Part shown: positions 2,060 through 60,028 of the stretch, piece after piece
Numbering within the stretch: the stretch's first letter is position 1
Layout: each line of letters begins with the position of its first letter
Virus record (IMG/VR): IMGVR_UViG_3300032241_003073
Coordinates: 1 to 64,000 of that record
From: a virus
Length of the DNA stretch: 64,000 bases
Strand: one strand, 5' to 3'
Notes under the pieces: model-generated
What the model was told of the DNA's origin: nothing
Databases searched by the model: none
The model's input: the letters and a program-made list of their open reading frames with translations, nothing else
Position numbers and translations under genes: made by a program

Positions 2060-2866
2060 TTAATTTACTTTTGCCATTCCAAATTTATTTGTGTCAATTG
2101 GACAATCAATGCTTTTGTGATGACAGAATAAATTTATTGATACTATTTGAGAATATATGTCTCCTTCTTCTTTTGTTACAAATACATTCTCTTTTTCTTC
2201 ATAAAAATTGTTAGAATTATATAAAGGAGCATAATGTTTGTAGCAAACATAATCCATAGATTCTAATAGTTCTAATAAATCTTTTGATTTTTCTTGTCTA
2301 TCATCTTCTATGTAAAGCAAAGGCTTTAATTTTTCAATTGTTTCTTTCCCTCCTTCTAGGGCCAATTTCTCCATTCCTTCTATATCAATTTTAACAAAAT
2401 CCAATCTAATAAAATTTTGTTCGTCTAAAGTTATAAGAGGAACTGGATAGTTTTGAGATGAAGAGTAATCTTCACAAAGCGAAAGTGCTCCAAAATTTGT
2501 TGTTCTTTCTTTATCAAGTTCAGGTACGGAAATAAAACCAGCAGATGATCCTACTGCTTTTTGGAATAAATAAACATTGTGTAAATTGTTTATTGATACA
2601 TTTCCGGCCAAGGTGTTGAAATTAGTTCTTTCAGGTTCATAAGCAAATACCAGTCCGTTTGGTCCAACAATTCGAGATAGAGCGATTGTATGCGATCCAA
2701 TATTTGCTCCAATATCTAAAACAAAACTTCCTGGTTTGATTGCGTCAGAAAAAACTTGAACTTCAGCTTCTGAATATTCTCCGTATCTTTCAAAAGATCT
2801 TCCAACCCAAATGTCTTTGCTGTTGTAGATCATAAGCCCGTATTTGCATTTTTTGATTAAATTCAT
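2060..2866 (-). CDS. FkbM-family methyltransferase
   Basis: VLDIGANIG SAM motif, AYEPE, KIDIEGME. Confidence 0.9.
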   Translation of the reverse strand: MNLIKKCKYGLMIYNSKDIWVGRSFERYGEYSEAEVQVFSDAIKPGSFVLDIGANIGSHTIALSRIVGPNGLVFAYEPERTNFNTLAGNVSINNLHNVYLFQKAVGSSAGFISVPELDKERTTNFGALSLCEDYSSSQNYPVPLITLDEQNFIRLDFVKIDIEGMEKLALEGGKETIEKLKPLLYIEDDRQEKSKDLLELLESMDYVCYKHYAPLYNSNNFYEEKENVFVTKEEGDIYSQIVSINLFCHHKSIDCPIDTNKFGMAKVN

Positions 2867-4576: not shown

Positions 4577-4919
4577 TTTTTCTTTCCTTGGTTCTGGAGT
4601 ATTTGCAAATTCCAAAGTTGCTATTCAAATTCTTTCTGGGAATAGAATCATGGCTAATTACTGTAACAAGACGGTACTCGTCAATTGTTATAGATTCCAT
4701 TACAAACAGTATGTTTATTTCATTGTTAAAACTATAAACAGTTCCATTCTTTCTAGGAGTTCCAAATGGGATATATTCTTTTTTTTTGATAATTTTTGAA
4801 AATTTTACAGATTCTGTAATTTCATCAAACAATGTAAATCCATTTTTTTTCTTTTTTTTTACACGTTCTTTCCATCGTATCAGTGCATGATCTGTTATGT
4901 GGAGAATATTAAATTTCAT
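4569..4919 (-). CDS. hypothetical protein with ITDHA..R..ER motif (DUF4258/RelE-like fold possible)
   Basis: N-terminal HITDHALIRWKER and C-terminal LVTVI strand. Confidence 0.5.
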   Translation of the reverse strand: MKFNILHITDHALIRWKERVKKKKKNGFTLFDEITESVKFSKIIKKKEYIPFGTPRKNGTVYSFNNEINILFVMESITIDEYRLVTVISHDSIPRKNLNSNFGICKYSRTKERKNV

Positions 4920-4966
4920 TTTTAAACTTTCTATTGTGGCAAGTTAATTTCCCCTTTCGTTGTTTA

Positions 4967-4994
4967 ATTTTATCACAATCCTCAATAAAATCAA
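4967..4994 (-). promoter_or_regulatory. sigma70-type early promoter
   Basis: TTGATT-16 nt ending TGA-TAAAAT. Confidence 0.55.
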
Positions 4995-6076
4995 TTCAAA
5001 TATTTTGGAATGTATGTTTGAAGGGCAATCCAAATAAGCGATCTTTTTGCTCTGGATGCTACAGTATAAGACCAGCGATAATGATTCCAATTTTCATGTC
5101 TTTGTTCGTATGCAATTACAGAACCGAATTCTGCCCCTTGAGACTTGTGAGCCGTAATTGCATATGCATAATCAAATGGATTTGGAGTTTGCCCAAAGTC
5201 AAACTCATTCGTTTTTTTGCCAAATTGTTCAATGTCGTAGTGAACTTTTTCATAAAGAACACCATCTGAAATGAAATCAAAACGATCATTTTTATGAATC
5301 TTTGTTACTACGCCTTGCATTCCATTGAATAATCCTTGTTTTTTATTATTTCTTAATGAAATTATTTTTTCATCTTTTCCTACAAATGTATATTCAATTC
5401 TTTTTTGTCTTCTGACTTTTTCATTGATTTCAACACGAGTTTTATTGTAAGCACAAATAACTTGATCGACGGAAGCCAAATGGCGGTCCTCAATTGCCGA
5501 AGAATTTACAATTTGTACATTGTTTTCACATTTAAATGTCGTTGATGGATTTCCATTTCGAAGATGAGCAGCAAAATGAGCAATTTCTCCAGCATTTCTA
5601 TGTATAGTTTCTAATTTATACATAGGATCTTCCATTAAATTGAATTTGGTTCCAATAGGCTCTAATTGTCCATGATCACCGACATATATGATTGGAAGAT
5701 TGAAAGATAGCAAATCCATATGAATTTCTTTGCTTACAAAAGATCCTTCATCAATAATAAATCCTTCTATTCCTTTGGAATTTAAATCATAAGCATCAGC
5801 AATCATCCAAATTGTTTCATCTCTATCGTTCTTGTAGGGTTTATAAATTGTTCCATGAATTGTGTTGGAATCAAGACCTTTTTTTCTTAATACATTCGTA
5901 GCTTGTCCAGTAAAAGCACACACAGCGAAATTTTCAAAATATTTAGATAAGTAGGTCAAACAAGTTGTTTTTCCACATCCTGCATGACCTCCTAAAGTTA
6001 CAACTTGATTGTTGCCACTTTTTATTTCTTTTATAACGTTTTTGACTGCATCTTTTTGTTCTGTTGTAAGAATCAT
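4991..6076 (-). CDS. RecD/Dda-like SF1B DNA helicase
   Basis: GHAGCGKTT Walker A, IIDEGS, VGDHGQLEP, AYAITAHKSQGAEF, YTVASRA. Confidence 0.92.
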   Translation of the reverse strand: MILTTEQKDAVKNVIKEIKSGNNQVVTLGGHAGCGKTTCLTYLSKYFENFAVCAFTGQATNVLRKKGLDSNTIHGTIYKPYKNDRDETIWMIADAYDLNSKGIEGFIIDEGSFVSKEIHMDLLSFNLPIIYVGDHGQLEPIGTKFNLMEDPMYKLETIHRNAGEIAHFAAHLRNGNPSTTFKCENNVQIVNSSAIEDRHLASVDQVICAYNKTRVEINEKVRRQKRIEYTFVGKDEKIISLRNNKKQGLFNGMQGVVTKIHKNDRFDFISDGVLYEKVHYDIEQFGKKTNEFDFGQTPNPFDYAYAITAHKSQGAEFGSVIAYEQRHENWNHYRWSYTVASRAKRSLIWIALQTYIPKYLN

Positions 6077-6923: not shown

Positions 6924-7213
6924 TCGCCTCGGTGGGAATCGAACCCACACTCCGGTTTCCCAGAAACGGATTTTCTTACCACTACGACTTTCGTCGCCTC
7001 AAAAATGAGTTTGTGGTCTGGACTATGCCTTCACCATATCTTGCGATTTAGGTGGATGCCGTCTAGTCTCTACACCTTCCTATTTCTAGGCTTGGCTCGG
7101 CGTTGCCATTTGAAAGGTTTCACCGAATTTGACATCATCCCACCAGAAGTTTCCTATCTGATGGCTCATTAGGTAGACAAGTCCGTTGCGTCTGCCAGTT
7201 CCGCCACGAGGCG
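6924..7213 (-). tRNA. trnL: tRNA-Leu(UAA) interrupted by a group I intron
   Basis: Exon 1 7213-7179 CGCCTCGTGGCGGAACTGGCAGACGCAACGGACTT; exon 2 6974-6924 AAAATCCGTTTCTGGGAAACCGGAGTGTGGGTTCGATTCCCACCGAGGCGA; spliced anticodon arm ACGGA-CT-TAA-AA-TCCGT; long variable arm; A73; no encoded CCA. Confidence 0.93.
6975..7178 (-). mobile_element. group I self-splicing intron (IC3-like, 204 nt, no ORF)
   Basis: Exon ends in U, intron ends in G; IGS TGAGCC; core elements AAATTCGGTGAAACC (P), GGCAACGCCGAGCCAAG (Q), GTAGAGACTAGACGG (R), GCATAGTCC (S). Confidence 0.9.
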
Positions 7214-7225
7214 TCAACACATATA

Positions 7226-7253
7226 ACTATATCACATTATTTTAGAATGTCAA
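7226..7253 (-). promoter_or_regulatory. sigma70-type promoter for tRNA-Leu
   Basis: TTGACA-16 nt ending TGA-TATAGT, 12 nt upstream of the tRNA 5' end. Confidence 0.75.
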
Positions 7254-11388: not shown

Positions 11389-13506
11389 ATGAGTTTTAAA
11401 TCTTGGATTTTAGCAGAAAACATTATTGTAAAGTACGGAAAAGACGAAGCATCTTTAGTGCCAGCAACAACTAACATTCTTCCATATGATTTTCATTATC
11501 AAAGTGAAAATGATTATGCAACATACTTTATAGGATTTTATCGAGCAGAAAGAACTGGTTATGTTTCTTTAGGTTCCCAGCCAACCCATATTGGAATCAT
11601 AAAGACAAATTCTATTAATCATGGAAATGCAGTTGATATTGGTTTTATCAAAAATTTAATTGGTGAATTGTCAAAAATGGGTTTTAAATCTGTTCCTTAT
11701 AAAGAGGTTGGAACCAATTTTGACAAGGCTTTTTCAAATGTAGGATACAAACCAGAAAATCCAGCACAAACAGGATACACTACTGGAGAAAATATTCCAG
11801 ATATAGATTTAGGACAATCTTCCACTCATTCAATGTCTCCTGGAATTTCTGTTTCTAGAGCGGCAGGATCTTGGGCTTATTTTATTGAAGTTGGTACAGG
11901 AAGTTCCCAATTTTATTTGTCAAAATTAATTAATGCTATTAAACAAGCCGCACAACCTCTGGTAAATAATGATTTAATTGATTTTTATAGTTTTCATAAT
12001 CGCACATCAGGAAAAGACGAAATTGTTTATTCTTCTAAAGGCAAAGAATCAAAAGAAAATTATTCTACACAATTAAGCCAATGTATGTCTCAATTAAAAT
12101 ATATGGCTTCTGTCATGCAAAAAGAAATGCCATCTTATATTAAACAACTACTCAATAGAATTAATCTTGAAGGTGCAAAAAACGCAGAAAACTGGACAGG
12201 AAGATTGGCAGAGCCTAAAAATTATAAGTTGAAATTTTCTAAGATGTATGAATTGATTCAGTCTTCTTTAGGTGACGATATTATAATTAAATCATTCCTA
12301 GATGCGATGAAACTACAAGATACAGAAAGGTTTAATCAATTAGAAAAAATCGCAAAATGGTCTGAAAATAAAGATTCTAATCGTTCTTGGATTGGTGGGG
12401 CTCTAGAAAACATAGAAAAATTTTGGGGCAATGACGAGTCCAAACTTGTTCGAGCATATTCAGACCCAGAAAAAGTTTTTCTCTATATTTCTAGTCTGTA
12501 TGAGACTCTTGTTGTTTATGGCGATTTATTAAAAGAAATTGAACCAGACGAATATGATCATTTGGTGCAAACTGCTAAATACTCAATAGAAAAAGGATTT
12601 GAAGAGGGTCATGCTCGTGGGTTGTCTAGGCATGAAATTGTTCGTCTGAATGATTTAGCAGATGTTTTAGATTTAAATCCAAAAATTAAACATGAATTAG
12701 AACAAAATTCTCAAGAGCTTAAAGATCAAGAAGAAAAAAGACAGAATAAAATGAAAGAAGAAAGATTGTCTCAAAGGTTCTTAATTCCCGAAGGTCAATT
12801 TTCATATCTTGAAAAAGATGTTTGGAAAACTATACCTGATAAATTTCTTGAATATTATAATGGAAAATATGAAATTAACTTTGGTGAATTAGCATTGGAT
12901 TTTATTGATGACGATACCAAAGAATCAATAAGTCATGACGCTTATGAAAAAGCAGAAGAAGAGGCTCATGGAGATGTTTCTGAAAGACCTTCAGAAACAT
13001 ATGGGCAGGATAAGAAAGAATTATTTGACGATATTGATTATTATTGGGATAAATTCATAGAAGATTATGAATTGGATGATATCAACGAAGATACTCCTGA
13101 ACAGGAAATTCCAGAAATAATTAAAAAGCATTATGTTGATGATTTTATTGATTGGCGAAAAGAAAAAATGCAAGAAGACGAAGATAGTGATGGTAGATAT
13201 ACACCAGACACGGAATCACATGAATTCCAAATGAGAATTCACGAAATTGAAAAAGAATTGGCCGAGGAAAAAGCTTGGGAACAAGGATTGGCAACAATAT
13301 ACAATGATGATGGGGATATATTCATCCAAACTCATAAGAATAATTATGAAAAAATTAAGTCAATTATCAAAAAAACTATAGAATTAAATCTTTCTAAAAA
13401 AGACAATGATGGAATTCCATATTGGAAAAGTAGTACACCTATAAATATTGATTTTATACCTCAAGGGGGATTTAGAAAATCTGCTTATGATATGCTAAAC
13501 ATGTGA
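11389..13506 (+). CDS. large acidic hypothetical protein, candidate internal head protein
   Basis: 705 aa; MSFKSWILAE N-terminus; TAAATA and AAGGA upstream. Confidence 0.75.
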   Translation: MSFKSWILAENIIVKYGKDEASLVPATTNILPYDFHYQSENDYATYFIGFYRAERTGYVSLGSQPTHIGIIKTNSINHGNAVDIGFIKNLIGELSKMGFKSVPYKEVGTNFDKAFSNVGYKPENPAQTGYTTGENIPDIDLGQSSTHSMSPGISVSRAAGSWAYFIEVGTGSSQFYLSKLINAIKQAAQPLVNNDLIDFYSFHNRTSGKDEIVYSSKGKESKENYSTQLSQCMSQLKYMASVMQKEMPSYIKQLLNRINLEGAKNAENWTGRLAEPKNYKLKFSKMYELIQSSLGDDIIIKSFLDAMKLQDTERFNQLEKIAKWSENKDSNRSWIGGALENIEKFWGNDESKLVRAYSDPEKVFLYISSLYETLVVYGDLLKEIEPDEYDHLVQTAKYSIEKGFEEGHARGLSRHEIVRLNDLADVLDLNPKIKHELEQNSQELKDQEEKRQNKMKEERLSQRFLIPEGQFSYLEKDVWKTIPDKFLEYYNGKYEINFGELALDFIDDDTKESISHDAYEKAEEEAHGDVSERPSETYGQDKKELFDDIDYYWDKFIEDYELDDINEDTPEQEIPEIIKKHYVDDFIDWRKEKMQEDEDSDGRYTPDTESHEFQMRIHEIEKELAEEKAWEQGLATIYNDDGDIFIQTHKNNYEKIKSIIKKTIELNLSKKDNDGIPYWKSSTPINIDFIPQGGFRKSAYDMLNM

Positions 13507-13556
13507 TCTAATTATTTCACTAATTTTTTCCAGTTTTCCTGTTCGGACATATAAAG

Positions 13557-13631
13557 TGGGCTGTCTCAGAGTCGAACTGAGTTCTCATGTTCTTCAGACA
13601 TGCGATAAATGACCGCACTAGCTCACAGCCC
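13557..13631 (-). tRNA. trnF: tRNA-Phe(GAA), atypical D-arm
   Basis: Acceptor GGGCTGT/ACAGCCC, anticodon arm CATGT-CTGAAGA-ACATG, T-arm CTCAG-TTCGACT-CTGAG, A73. Confidence 0.85.
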
Positions 13632-13920
13632 AAACAATCTCTTTAACATCAGACGATGGATCGCAGTCATAAACTACGGTTGTAAAATTAGATTCAGAAA
13701 TGACATAAATCATTCCTTCAAAATCATCGTCGGATTTTTTATACGCAGATTCATCACGATATAGGAAAAATTCATTTTCGAGAGAAATATCATTGGTATA
13801 AGGTATCGCAACATCATCATCCACCCCTTGATACCACATATTTTTCCATTTTTTGAAACAAATCTCGACAATATATTCTTTTGAAAGATTTGTCAAAATA
13901 TCAATGCCGCCTATTTCCAT
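13618..13920 (-). CDS. acidic hypothetical protein inside the tRNA cluster
   Basis: AGGA RBS; 100 aa; stop codon lies 14 nt inside tRNA-Phe. Confidence 0.6.
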   Translation of the reverse strand: MEIGGIDILTNLSKEYIVEICFKKWKNMWYQGVDDDVAIPYTNDISLENEFFLYRDESAYKKSDDDFEGMIYVISESNFTTVVYDCDPSSDVKEIVWAVS

Positions 13921-14157
13921 TATTATTTTCCTAAAAAGTGTTTAATCGCATCTTCCTTCGCATATCGTTTTTAATTCGTCGTTAACCATTCCAGATATTG
14001 CCCACTTTGGTAATTTTAAAGACCAAGCAAGACGAATACTTGCAACCCATATCTACAATGCCTTCTTTTCCAGGCTCAGTGCAGCCTAGAATAAAAGCAC
14101 CAACAATTTTCACTTCTTCTTTTTTCATTTTTTAATTATTTTCTGAAAACAAGGGAG

Positions 14158-14244
14158 CGGAAGGCTGAGGTCTCGATCCCCAAACCCGTTAGGATTCCAA
14201 CCGTTTTCAAGACGGTGTTGGCACGCCAGTCCAATTAACCTTCC
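14158..14244 (-). tRNA. trnS: tRNA-Ser(UGA), atypical T-loop
   Basis: Acceptor GGAAGGT/GCCTTCC, anticodon arm ACCGT-CTTGAAA-ACGGT, long variable arm, T-loop ATCGAGA, G73. Confidence 0.88.
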
Positions 14245-14251
14245 AATTTAA

Positions 14252-14334
14252 TGGGCAGAGAGGGATTCGAACCCCCGAACTCATAAGAGACCTGATTTAC
14301 AGTCAGGTGCATTTAGCCACTCTGCCACCTGCCC
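14252..14334 (-). tRNA. trnY: tRNA-Tyr(GUA)
   Basis: GGGCAGGTGGCAGAGTGGCTAAATGCACCTGACTGTAAATCAGG...GGTTCGAATCCCTCTCTGCCCA, canonical cloverleaf. Confidence 0.95.
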
Positions 14335-14350
14335 ATTATTTTTCCAAAAG

Positions 14351-14434
14351 CGGAAGTGACAGGCGACGACCCTGTAAGGCTATTAAGCCCACCTGTTTAG
14401 CAAACAGGCTCCTAAACCACTTCGGGTCACTTCC
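14351..14434 (-). tRNA. trnS: tRNA-Ser(GCU), atypical T-loop
   Basis: Acceptor GGAAGTG/CACTTCC, anticodon arm CCTGT-TTGCTAA-ACAGG, variable arm GGCTTAATAGCC, T-loop GTCGTCG, G73. Confidence 0.85.
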
Positions 14435-14451
14435 ATTTGGAATTAATCAAA

Positions 14452-14464
14452 TTTTCAAAGATCA
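14452..14464 (-). promoter_or_regulatory. boxA-like antitermination element
   Basis: TGATCTTTGAAAA between the terminator and the first tRNA. Confidence 0.55.
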
Positions 14465-14465
14465 A

Positions 14466-14512
14466 ATAAAAAACCCTCAGCAACCCTCTTTTGAAAGGTT
14501 GCTGAGGGTTTT
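14466..14512 (-). terminator. intrinsic terminator (attenuator) upstream of the tRNA cluster
   Basis: 12-bp stem CCCTCAGCAACC/GGTTGCTGAGGG followed by TTTTTTATTT. Confidence 0.92.
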
Positions 14513-14534
14513 ACCCCACAATTGTTCCTTTAGT

Positions 14535-14609
14535 CTAGGAAGCAACCTTCATCTTGTCATTGGATGACAAGTAATAATAGGATGACGAACTAAAGGATGA
14601 CTTACTCAC
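14535..14609 (-). CDS. Ser/Tyr/Phe-rich attenuator leader peptide MSKSSFSSSSYYYLSSNDKMKVAS
   Basis: GAGG RBS 6 nt before GTG; 10 Ser, 3 Tyr and 1 Phe in 24 codons; overlaps segments complementary to the terminator 5' arm. Confidence 0.82.
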   Translation of the reverse strand: MSKSSFSSSSYYYLSSNDKMKVAS

Positions 14610-14658
14610 GATTTGCCTCAATTGTGTGTGTTTGAAACTTTATCAATGTTGTGAAGGT

Positions 14659-14687
14659 ATATTAGCATCTCAGATTCAATTTTTCAA
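14659..14687 (-). promoter_or_regulatory. sigma70-type promoter of the leader/tRNA operon
   Basis: TTGAAA-17 nt ending TGC-TAATAT. Confidence 0.65.
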
Positions 14688-59116: not shown

Positions 59117-60028
59117 ATGCTATCATACAAACAATGGAAAACTTTGAATGAATCAGTAATGCCTAGCTTCACACTTGGCATTGCATCTCCTTCAAATCTT
59201 GGAATTCAATCTCCATTTGCTATGGATTTGGAAGAAGCCAAAAAAATGGCAAAAAAGAAATATAAGAAAAAGTTCAAAGATGAAGAAGAAGACGATGATG
59301 AAACAGGCGATGGAGAAATGGTTAAGCCATCATCTGATAAAGATGAGCCAGATGTTGATGTAGATGTTGATTCGGACGAAGATTCAGATGAAGACAAAAA
59401 CGTTTGCTCTAAATGTGGAATGATGTCTAAAAAGAAATCAAAGATGAAGTCCAAAAAGAAAATGTGGTCTGATGACGATGATCAAGACGATGATTCTGAA
59501 GATGACGACGATCAAGACGATGAAGAAAAGTCTAAAGATGATGATGAAGAAGACGAAGAGGGCGATGATGAAGTTTCACCAAAGAAGATGATGTCTAAAA
59601 AGAAAATGAAGTCCGACGAAGAAGATGAAGATGAAGATGAAGACGATGGTAATGAAGAAGATGATGATGACGAAGACGAAGGCGAAGAAGACGAAGACGA
59701 TGAAGGCGACGAGGAAGATGACGAAGATGACGAAGAAGAAGGCGACGATAAGCCTTCAAATAAAATGATGTCTAAAAAGAAAATGCTTAAAGGCAATCAA
59801 CACAAGATTGACATGAACAAAAATGGCAAAATTGACGCTGAAGACTTTAAGATTCTTAAAAACAAAAAGAAGAAAAATAAAAAGAAGGATGATTTGTCGG
59901 AAGATTCTTCTTGGTGGAACAGTGTTCAAAGCATGAATGTTTCTCCTTACACAAAATACAGTGATGGCTGTGAAAGTTTATTCACACCAATTGACACTGA
60001 AAATTTAACTCAAGGTGTTCGCTCCTAA
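59117..60028 (+). CDS. highly acidic low-complexity protein with EF-hand-like motif
   Basis: MLSYKQWKTLNE; poly-D/E tracts separated by MMSKKKM; LKGNQHKIDMNKNGKIDAEDF. Confidence 0.8.
   Translation: MLSYKQWKTLNESVMPSFTLGIASPSNLGIQSPFAMDLEEAKKMAKKKYKKKFKDEEEDDDETGDGEMVKPSSDKDEPDVDVDVDSDEDSDEDKNVCSKCGMMSKKKSKMKSKKKMWSDDDDQDDDSEDDDDQDDEEKSKDDDEEDEEGDDEVSPKKMMSKKKMKSDEEDEDEDEDDGNEEDDDDEDEGEEDEDDEGDEEDDEDDEEEGDDKPSNKMMSKKKMLKGNQHKIDMNKNGKIDAEDFKILKNKKKKNKKKDDLSEDSSWWNSVQSMNVSPYTKYSDGCESLFTPIDTENLTQGVRS

Follow-up and report, generated by a model that had tools for sequence, protein, structure and literature searches.

What controls a set of phage tRNA genes that lies behind a short open reading frame (ORF) and a strong intrinsic terminator? 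The question is raised by the minus strand of a viral record (IMG/VR IMGVR_UViG_3300032241_003073), of which we analyzed positions 1 to 64,000 (the window). Debate over why phages carry tRNA genes goes back 50 years, and to our knowledge the regulation of these genes is almost unstudied. Leader-peptide attenuators are familiar from amino-acid operons (trpL, hisL, pheL and leuL, and the multivalent thrL and ilvL), and all of those that we know to have been described act on amino-acid biosynthesis, transport or synthetase genes. A sequence-only reading of the locus had claimed for it the geometry of the trp, his and pheA attenuators, and the leader ORF, the run of cognate codons, the terminator and the protector pairing of that geometry are all present. 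We consider it probable that the unit is a ribosome-mediated leader-peptide attenuator that gates tRNA genes. The parts, their conservation in other phages and the co-variation of leader and tRNAs are observed; that the leader is translated, in which direction the switch works and what triggers it are inferred, and there are no experimental data.

Organization of the leader and tRNA unit

The promoter, GAGG ribosome-binding site, GTG-initiated ORF, terminator and order of tRNA genes each lie where the sequence-only reading had placed them, and every coordinate and string that it gave was verified in the sequence. The minus-strand unit begins at a σ70-type promoter (14659-14687) with a TTGAAA element, a 17-nt spacer, a TAATAT element, a TG extension and an A/T-rich stretch upstream; the region overall has about as many promoter-like sites as expected (17 versus 15.9). 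The Shine-Dalgarno sequence (GAGG, 14616-14619) lies 6 nt upstream of the GTG and is consistent with the phage's own usage, an SD-like 4-mer at -20 to -4 being present in 49% of its long ORFs and at 10% of random positions. The leader ORF (14535-14609) comprises the GTG and 23 sense codons (24 in total) followed by TAG, and encloses an 8-bp hairpin across codons 13 to 19 (14553-14571). It is followed by the intrinsic terminator (14466-14512), with a 19-bp stem and a 5-nt loop (stem-loop 14512-14470), a U-tract and a predicted energy of -30.6 kcal/mol (z -8.4).

Downstream on the same strand lie tRNA-Ser(GCU) (14350-14434), tRNA-Tyr(GUA) (14251-14335) and tRNA-Ser(UGA) (14157-14244), then ORFs of 48 codons (13982-14128) and 100 codons (13618-13920), neither with a family match, and tRNA-Phe(GAA) (13556-13631) as the last gene of the unit. 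The next gene is convergent (11389-13506, plus strand). A promoter-like site (13896-13868) lies at the start of the 100-codon ORF; tRNA-Phe may have its own promoter, and its co-transcription with the leader is uncertain. A separate promoter between the terminator and tRNA-Ser(GCU) would refute control by the leader, and a promoter scan of this spacer in the window found no σ70-like site.

Four tRNA genes had been claimed, and three of them, tRNA-Tyr (Rfam 59.9 bits), tRNA-Phe (38.1 bits) and tRNA-Ser(UGA), are called by both ARAGORN and Rfam, the last by Rfam only through the tRNA-Sec model, at 35.7 bits and under the model cut-off. The fourth, tRNA-Ser(GCU), was recovered only when ARAGORN settings were relaxed; default ARAGORN does not call it, nor does Rfam at a threshold as loose as E ≤ 10. 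It has a weak D-arm and a non-canonical T-loop. Its acceptor, anticodon and variable arms are intact, and it is 70% identical to the ARAGORN-called tRNA-Ser(GCU) of phage LR756511.1. Since the odd T-loop is shared with the tRNA-Ser(GCU) of a related locus (L013, below), the gene is probably real but atypical. A pattern search with the atypical T-arm returned chance matches only, outside tRNAs. The sole Leu tRNA detected in this phage lies 7 kb away, with its own promoter and no leader.

Leader codons and the amino acids of the tRNAs

As claimed, 13 of the 15 codons at positions 2 to 16 of the leader (14562-14606) specify Ser, Tyr or Phe (9 Ser, 3 Tyr and 1 Phe, alongside 1 Lys and 1 Leu). This density is reached, in any frame, at only three loci in the 98-kb record, one of which is a simple repeat. 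Under strict wobble, 10/14 control codons are read by the operon's own tRNAs, against a background of 13% in the ORFs of the phage (binomial P = 8.5e-7); TCC (codons 5, 10 and 16, and also 24) and TTG (codon 14) are read by none of them. The observation that both Ser boxes are sampled was correct, but its interpretation as a match to the two Ser isoacceptors could not be sustained, as this is expected of any Ser-rich peptide. Recoding the peptide according to the codon usage of the phage gave isoacceptor coverage as good as that observed (P 0.19-0.93), and the match between leader and tRNAs therefore holds at the amino-acid level only. A synonymous design of one codon per isoacceptor, for which these P values gave no statistical support, was dropped.

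The module in other phages

The same module, consisting of a promoter, a Shine-Dalgarno sequence and start codon, a short ORF, a strong terminator and a cluster of Ser/Tyr/Leu/Phe tRNAs, was identified at four other loci: L003 in the 595-kb phage LR756511.1 (short ORF 2364-2447, plus strand), L012 in a 436-kb IMG/VR phage (6294-6214, minus strand; found through a 47%-identical SbcD and conserved synteny), L013 on a metagenome contig (6252-6175, minus strand) and L092 (1109-1180, plus strand). Frame and architecture are thus conserved in distant phages, the absence of which would have told against the sequence-only reading. A strong terminator is present in all homologs, and L003, L012 and L013 have a comparable promoter at the matching place. 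The spacer from terminator to first tRNA is only about 5 to 20 nt in L012, L013 and L092, too short for a promoter. Other searches were less productive: a protein-guided search with the two upstream genes gave no close relatives, IMG/VR yielded no match to the exact pattern of the terminator or to either of two patterns for tRNA-Ser, BLAST searches of GenBank phages with the region gave, apart from LR756511.1, matches to tRNA genes alone, and a crude scan of the other tRNA clusters of LR756511.1 revealed no convincing leader-plus-terminator module.

The fit of leader codons to the operon is closer in three of these homologs, with 14/15 cognate codons in L003 (an operon with Ser, Leu and Tyr tRNAs), 14/14 in L012 (a 15-tRNA operon with only Ser, Tyr, Leu and Phe tRNAs) and 15/15 in L013 (only Tyr, Ser, Leu and Phe tRNAs), giving P values of 4e-10 to 2e-9. 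Their leaders have 5-6 Leu codons each, and their operons have Leu tRNAs; in the window operon, which lacks a Leu tRNA, a single Leu codon occurs in the leader. We surveyed 86 phage tRNA loci, picking leaders by a rule blind to the tRNAs. Leaders fit their own tRNA set better than in shuffled pairings (0/20,000 permutations), and in an independent subset of 9 loci the observed value was reached in 0/50,000 permutations. The amino-acid content of the leader thus co-varies with the downstream tRNAs across phage tRNA clusters, a check that the sequence-only reading had itself proposed.

Conservation of this kind could also be expected of a product that acts by itself. The leader could be a conserved Ser/Leu/Tyr-rich micro-protein, or the unit a 185-nt sRNA ended by the terminator, with the tRNAs supplied by constitutive leak-through or from an unrecognized phage-specific promoter. 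The class-II leaders appear homologous at both the peptide and the DNA level, so that this family alone does not exclude a conserved micro-protein; the whole 185-nt transcript is strongly structured (z -6.1), the window and L003 share a conserved 13-nt stretch 3′ of the terminator, and conservation of the antiterminator is not clear. However, the window leader has exchanged Leu for Ser and Tyr alongside the missing Leu tRNAs, which a functional peptide would hardly tolerate, and unrelated arrays with quite different tRNA sets still have matching leaders. The conserved post-terminator motif does not behave as a repeated promoter-like element in the window (35 matches versus 31 expected), a promoter cannot fit the spacer of three homologs, and the leader matches no Rfam family. 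We regard this explanation as unlikely, though it is the best placed of the alternatives.

Predicted RNA switch

The alternative pairings that had been claimed exist in the sequence as two perfect 9-nt complementarities, one between 14549-14541 and 14503-14495 (antiterminator) and one between 14597-14589 and 14534-14526 (protector), together with the hairpin at 14571-14553. Two perfect 9-bp pairings arose at this leader composition in 23/2000 shuffles. The 5′ strand of the predicted antiterminator is formed by the last leader codons (14539-14552) and pairs with 14505-14495 in the 5′ arm of the terminator; its best duplex, at -14 to -3 from the stop codon, has a predicted energy of -14.0 kcal/mol (matched by 7/300 shuffles), and the whole domain one of -20.4 kcal/mol (z -2.7). 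In both minimum free energy (MFE) and centroid structures, the 3′ half of the protector (14514-14534) pairs with codons 5 to 7 (14597-14589) and with the 5′ UTR (14626-14619), for a domain energy of -30.3 kcal/mol (z -2.4) in the window; the corresponding protector energy in L013 is -22.6 kcal/mol. In the MFE structures of all four modules that were folded (the window, L003, L012 and L013), the control codons are paired with sequence that surrounds or follows the stop codon. The claim that the protector excludes the antiterminator needs rewording: the antiterminator strand is enclosed rather than overlapped by the protector, and the two compete through the protector's 3′ half. The hairpin within the leader is present in each predicted state unless covered by the ribosome; it is possible that it acts as an RNA polymerase pause hairpin, a role that is inferred.

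Folding of the window with a masked ribosome footprint reproduced in silico the switch that had been proposed, a stall giving the antiterminator and a ribosome at the stop codon the terminator. With the footprint at codons 4 to 17, 13-14 of the 19 nt of the terminator 5′ arm were predicted to pair upstream, compared with only 4/19 without a ribosome or with one at codons 18 to 22 or the stop codon, and 10-11/19 with one at codons 23 to 24. This switch was equaled by 1/100 shuffles. The terminator is far more stable than the antiterminator and wins in every full-length MFE structure (-30.6 versus -20.4 kcal/mol), and the switch must therefore be kinetic. The prediction depends on a 5′ UTR helix: when the window leader was folded without its 5′ UTR, the predicted switch vanished. 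Among the homologs, L092 has a predicted antiterminator in the corresponding position, formed by the final codons of its leader, that is significant (0/300 shuffles); the predicted switch is only moderate in L003 (equaled by 5/100 shuffles) and indistinguishable from shuffles in L013 and L012 (11/100 and 42/100, respectively).

The dominance of the terminator would also suit coupling in the opposite sense, in which termination would be suppressed by a ribosome that translates the leader efficiently and follows closely on the polymerase, such that tRNA synthesis rises with good decoding and falls on stalling. A Ser/Leu-rich ORF at another locus (L077) runs through the hairpin that precedes the tRNAs, a geometry favorable to such coupling, but this hairpin, whose T-tail is weak, is possibly not a terminator. 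In the window, 22 nt separate the stop codon from the terminator stem, which is therefore out of reach of a terminating ribosome, and the terminator is opened in the folds with a stalled ribosome, not in those with completed translation. Coupling of this sense seems to us less likely still than a micro-protein or sRNA. This AT-rich DNA abounds in promoter-like and terminator-like sites, and its frames often carry Ser, Tyr and Phe codons, but an incidental open frame in an untranslated gap, with an ordinary terminator next to a tRNA cluster, is very hard to reconcile with just 3 loci in 98 kb reaching 13/15, four further modules of shared architecture (P ~1e-9) and permutation tests of 0/50,000.

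Proposed mechanism

Under the attenuator model that we favor, host RNA polymerase would start at the promoter and transcribe the 24-codon leader. If the Ser, Tyr and Phe codons are read fast, the ribosome would arrive at the stop codon and cover the antiterminator strand in the last codons; with the leader covered in this way, or untranslated, the 19-bp terminator would form and transcription would end before the tRNAs. The untranslated leader is predicted to terminate because its control-codon region then pairs with the post-stop region. When charged tRNA-Ser, -Tyr or -Phe is scarce, a ribosome stalled within codons 4 to 17 would hold the protector open, the antiterminator could take the 5′ arm of the terminator, and polymerase would read on into tRNA-Ser(GCU), tRNA-Tyr, tRNA-Ser(UGA) and perhaps tRNA-Phe. 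Fresh tRNAs would speed translation of the leader and close the operon, a negative feedback on decoding capacity. That the trigger is a tRNA-cleaving host defense is a guess. Where stalling arises from amino-acid starvation, extra tRNA synthesis is no remedy.

We lean, by a narrower margin of confidence, toward the broader proposal that attenuation of tRNA genes is a widespread and old principle in large phages. Each block of tRNAs would be gated by a mini-gene written in the amino acids of that block, and the phage would thereby gauge decoding capacity for each codon family and refill those tRNAs that run short, be the cause host shut-off, tRNA cleavage by a defense system or the codon demand of the phage itself.

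If the model is correct, this would be the first attenuator to yield the very molecule that it senses, and it would give a direct read-out of which tRNAs limit a phage. It would connect the tRNA arrays of phages with translational stress, and possibly with defenses based on anticodon nucleases; synthetic biology would gain sensors of the tRNA pool that are compact and programmable. Leader content could also help to annotate how far tRNA operons really extend in uncultivated giant phages.

Comparison with known systems

Rfam searches of the region yielded no riboswitch, T-box, sRNA or known leader. Hits to the His_leader model were rejected: at 21 bits they fell short of the 49-bit cut-off, they were driven by the terminator and they lay on both strands. 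T-box riboswitches, as proposed for the window leader, sense the state of a specific tRNA and control a downstream terminator, but they do so by direct binding of uncharged tRNA, with no part for translation, and the genes that they serve are synthetase or amino-acid genes. The window leader instead has a Shine-Dalgarno sequence, a start codon and an in-frame codon run, and Rfam returned no T-box hit over 3.5 kb (E ≤ 1) or over the leader itself (E ≤ 10).

Our literature searches found no prior account of leader-peptide attenuation controlling tRNA genes. Three reports (PMC10264068, PMC11555353 and PMC11464382) describe phage tRNAs as counters to tRNA-targeting defenses, which gives a reason for a phage to replace particular tRNAs, tRNA-Tyr among them; their topic appears to be tRNA function, and none of the three surfaced in our searches on attenuation or leader peptides of phage tRNA genes. 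A parallel in circumstance is a cryptic tRNA operon of Anabaena PCC 7120 that is induced under translational stress (PMC8421152, in which attenuation, a leader or a terminator is not mentioned) and repressed by TrcR (PMC10272220). Both would be accessory tRNA arrays turned on when translation is impaired, as proposed for the window, but the Anabaena array is bacterial and its control is reported to act via a protein repressor.

The closest likeness in form is to the attenuators of amino-acid operons, for which a survey of pheL is available (PMC3082878). The module in the window shares with them a short leader, a regulatory codon run and an intrinsic terminator. Its predicted structures further include a protector pairing in which the control codons take part and, less clearly supported across the homologs, an antiterminator whose 5′ strand is formed by the last leader codons; like the thr and ilv attenuators, the module is multivalent, with codons for several amino acids. 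Unlike them, the module is phage-borne, and what lies downstream is tRNAs and two small unknown ORFs. As the regulated genes would be the tRNAs themselves, the proposed loop closes on decoding capacity, not on amino-acid supply.

Organization of the leader and tRNA genes

The window derives from a 98-kb record (IMG/VR; CheckV completeness 23%, about 32% G+C) that we assign to a large tailed phage, as it carries genes for a tail sheath, a baseplate hub, SbcCD and a ribonucleotide reductase. The sequence-only reading had described a leader and terminator unit, and a check of the sequence located all of its elements on the minus strand: a promoter at 14687-14659 (TTGAAA and TAATAT separated by 17 nt, plus a TG extension), a GAGG Shine-Dalgarno site 6 nt upstream of a GTG start, a leader ORF of 24 codons (14609-14535), and a terminator with a 19-bp stem and U-tract (14512-14466; -30.6 kcal/mol, z -8.4). 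Thirteen Ser, Tyr or Phe codons do lie within codons 2-16 (the control stretch), neither 9-nt complementarity contains a mismatch, and the 8-bp hairpin internal to the leader is present. Shine-Dalgarno sites precede 49% of genes in this phage versus 10% of random positions, making the GAGG credible.

Among the four tRNAs claimed to follow, Tyr(GUA), Ser(UGA) and Phe(GAA) were identified by both ARAGORN and Rfam, whereas Ser(GCU) (14434-14350, minus strand) was recovered only by ARAGORN with relaxed scoring; its D-arm is weak and its T-loop non-canonical. We read this gene as atypical rather than decayed because it shares this odd T-loop with the Ser(GCU) gene of L013 (5465-5548, minus strand), an unrelated metagenome contig; judged from sequence alone, this suggests a conserved peculiarity. 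Non-canonical T-loops were noted in the window's Ser tRNAs at 14350-14434 and 14157-14244 (minus strand). A separate promoter between the terminator and tRNA-Ser(GCU), which would have refuted the proposal, was not predicted. In the same spacer, a 13-nt stretch is kept in the window (14450-14462, minus strand) and in L003 of phage LR756511.1 (about 2520-2535 of L003); it is not a repeated motif within the window and may be a processing signal. The unit ends at tRNA-Phe, since the next gene converges on the opposite strand. A promoter-like site precedes a 100-codon ORF upstream of tRNA-Phe, so this last tRNA may be independent of the leader.

A tRNA-Leu(UAA)-like gene missed by ARAGORN lies 7 kb from the operon (6924-7253, minus strand), with a group I intron in its anticodon loop (Rfam Intron_gpI, 6998-7188, 60.4 bits, E 1.5e-14) flanked by tRNA-like exons. 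This gene has a separate TTGACA/TATAGT promoter and a terminator and lacks a leader ORF.

Homologous modules and their codon content

Four further modules were found. BLAST matched tRNA-Ser(GCU) and the preceding spacer to LR756511.1 (L003), a 595-kb uncultured phage. There, four Ser, five Leu and two Tyr tRNAs follow a TTGACA promoter, a 27-codon ORF that starts with GTG (2364-2447) and a terminator of 17 bp (2471-2508). A 436-kb IMG/VR phage (L012), reached through an SbcD 47% identical to that of the window, has the same synteny. In it a promoter, an ATG ORF (6294-6214) and a terminator (6188-6153) stand before 15 tRNAs, of Ser, Tyr, Leu and Phe only, and a second terminator closes the array. 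L013, obtained by a tRNA pattern search of metagenomes, carries a promoter, an ORF (6252-6175) and a long terminator ahead of Tyr, Ser, Leu and Phe tRNAs only. L092 is the fifth module of this kind. The spacer from terminator to first tRNA is only about 5-20 nt in L012, L013 and L092. A crude scan of the other tRNA clusters of LR756511.1 revealed no such module; one tRNA of this phage (179588-179661 of LR756511.1, minus strand, in L004) has a CUA anticodon, is labelled 'Pyl' by ARAGORN and is possibly an amber suppressor. Within the tRNA array of L013, Ser(GCU) and Leu(CAA) are separated by an ORF (about 4845-5400, minus strand) of some 185 codons that resembles, by eye only, an HNH homing endonuclease.

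A codon was counted as cognate if some tRNA of the operon reads it by standard wobble. Cognate codons make up 14 of 15 in the control stretch of L003, 14 of 14 in L012 and 15 of 15 in L013, against 18-26% in each phage's own ORFs (P 4e-10 to 2e-9). These three leaders have 5-6 Leu codons each and their operons 5-7 Leu tRNAs; the window leader contains only one Leu codon and more Ser and Tyr in place of the others, and its operon has no Leu tRNA. Leader content follows the operon behind it and not the whole tRNA set of the genome, because the distant Leu tRNA has its own promoter and terminator without a leader, and the window leader is Leu-poor. Under strict wobble, no tRNA of the window's operon reads TCC (codons 5, 10, 16 and 24) or TTG (codon 14), and the operon lacks the Ser(GGA) tRNA carried by relatives. 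These codons could be of ancestral origin, or could serve as a gauge of host tRNAs. Both Ser boxes had been described as sampled to match the isoacceptors; the sampling stands, but all isoacceptors are covered no better than when this peptide is recoded with phage codon usage. We are highly confident that this is a genuine module, conserved and not random. The alternative that survives best is a small RNA or conserved micro-protein followed by an ordinary terminator, and we consider it unlikely.

Predicted RNA switch

Without a ribosome, the window leader is predicted to fold into two domains, the terminator and a protector (-30.3 kcal/mol). In the predicted protector, the partner of control codons 5-7 is 14534-14526, and the 5' UTR (14626-14619) closes the domain by pairing with about 14523-14516. 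The RNA was also folded up to the terminator loop with a 31-nt ribosome footprint masked. As had been proposed, a stall, here at codons 4-17, is predicted to free an antiterminator; it is three-way (-20.4 kcal/mol) and base-pairs with 13-14 of the 19 nt in the terminator 5' arm. Only 4 nt are paired without a ribosome or with one at codons 18-22 or the stop codon, and 10-11 nt with one at codons 23-24. The switch was equalled by 1 of 100 leader shuffles, and was lost when the 5' UTR was left out of the fold. The antiterminator 5' strand lies at -14 to -3 from the stop codon (7 of 300 shuffles), the classical attenuator position, and the L092 antiterminator is significant at the same place (0 of 300). 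Against shuffles, the switch is moderate in L003 (5 of 100) and not separable in L013 (11 of 100) or L012 (42 of 100). The terminator is thermodynamically favoured in every full-length fold, and control must therefore be kinetic, as in trp. We consider ribosome-mediated attenuation, in which stalling leads to transcription continuing into the tRNA genes, the most likely reading and a reasonably probable one; translation-transcription coupling in the opposite sense appears improbable.

Generality across phage tRNA loci

A pair of perfect 9-mer complementarities arose in 23 of 2000 shuffles, and 13 of 15 Ser/Tyr/Phe codons in any frame occur at only three loci of the 98-kb record, one of them a simple repeat. 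The window has just one other strong Ser-rich stretch, a long poly-Ser frame (about 59550-59750, minus strand) that runs antisense to the ORF at 59117-60028 and consists of a simple repeat. The proposed scan of other phage tRNA clusters covered 86 diverse loci gathered by a Ser(GCU) anticodon-arm motif. Strong terminators followed by a tRNA were taken, the leader being the longest ATG/GTG ORF ending just upstream, chosen blind to the tRNAs. Leaders matched their own tRNAs at 0.693, versus 0.569 +/- 0.02 in shuffled pairings (0 of 20,000 permutations), and the excess persists with one member per homologous family and informative sets only (n = 9, surely including some false positives; 0 of 50,000). 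Chance is hardly tenable as an explanation.

One phage, L098, has two leader and terminator modules (terminators 984-1016 and 5999-6031, scan orientation): 21 consecutive leader codons in one all belong to its eight tRNA amino acids, and 17 consecutive codons in the other, Trp, Cys, His and Tyr among them, are likewise drawn from the thirteen amino acids of its tRNA block. Two further loci were noted, both given in tRNA-sense orientation. At about 1470-1530 of L055, an open frame with Arg-Trp-Cys-Ser-Thr in a row and no in-frame ATG or GTG start precedes a His, Trp, Arg, Cys, Ser, Ser, Ser, Thr array. At about 920-1020 of L077, an ORF rich in Ser and Leu precedes Leu, Ser, Ser, Tyr, Leu and Leu tRNAs and crosses the hairpin in front of them, a geometry unlike that of the window that could act in the opposite sense.

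Comparison with known systems

A full-text literature search on leader peptides or attenuation with tRNA genes or phage found no attenuator of tRNA genes. The nearest case in print is the accessory tRNA operon of Anabaena, induced under translational stress, in a paper that does not mention attenuation, a leader or a terminator (PMC8421152); a later paper names the repressor TrcR as its controller (PMC10272220). PMC10264068, PMC11555353 and PMC11464382 deal, going by their abstracts, with the evasion of tRNA-targeting defences by phage tRNAs, and none of them was returned when phage tRNA genes were searched together with leader peptides or attenuation. The window module would work like a trp/his/thr-type attenuator, the structural criteria of which it meets, with the antiterminator as a prediction from folding, and tRNA genes would be a new kind of output for an attenuator.
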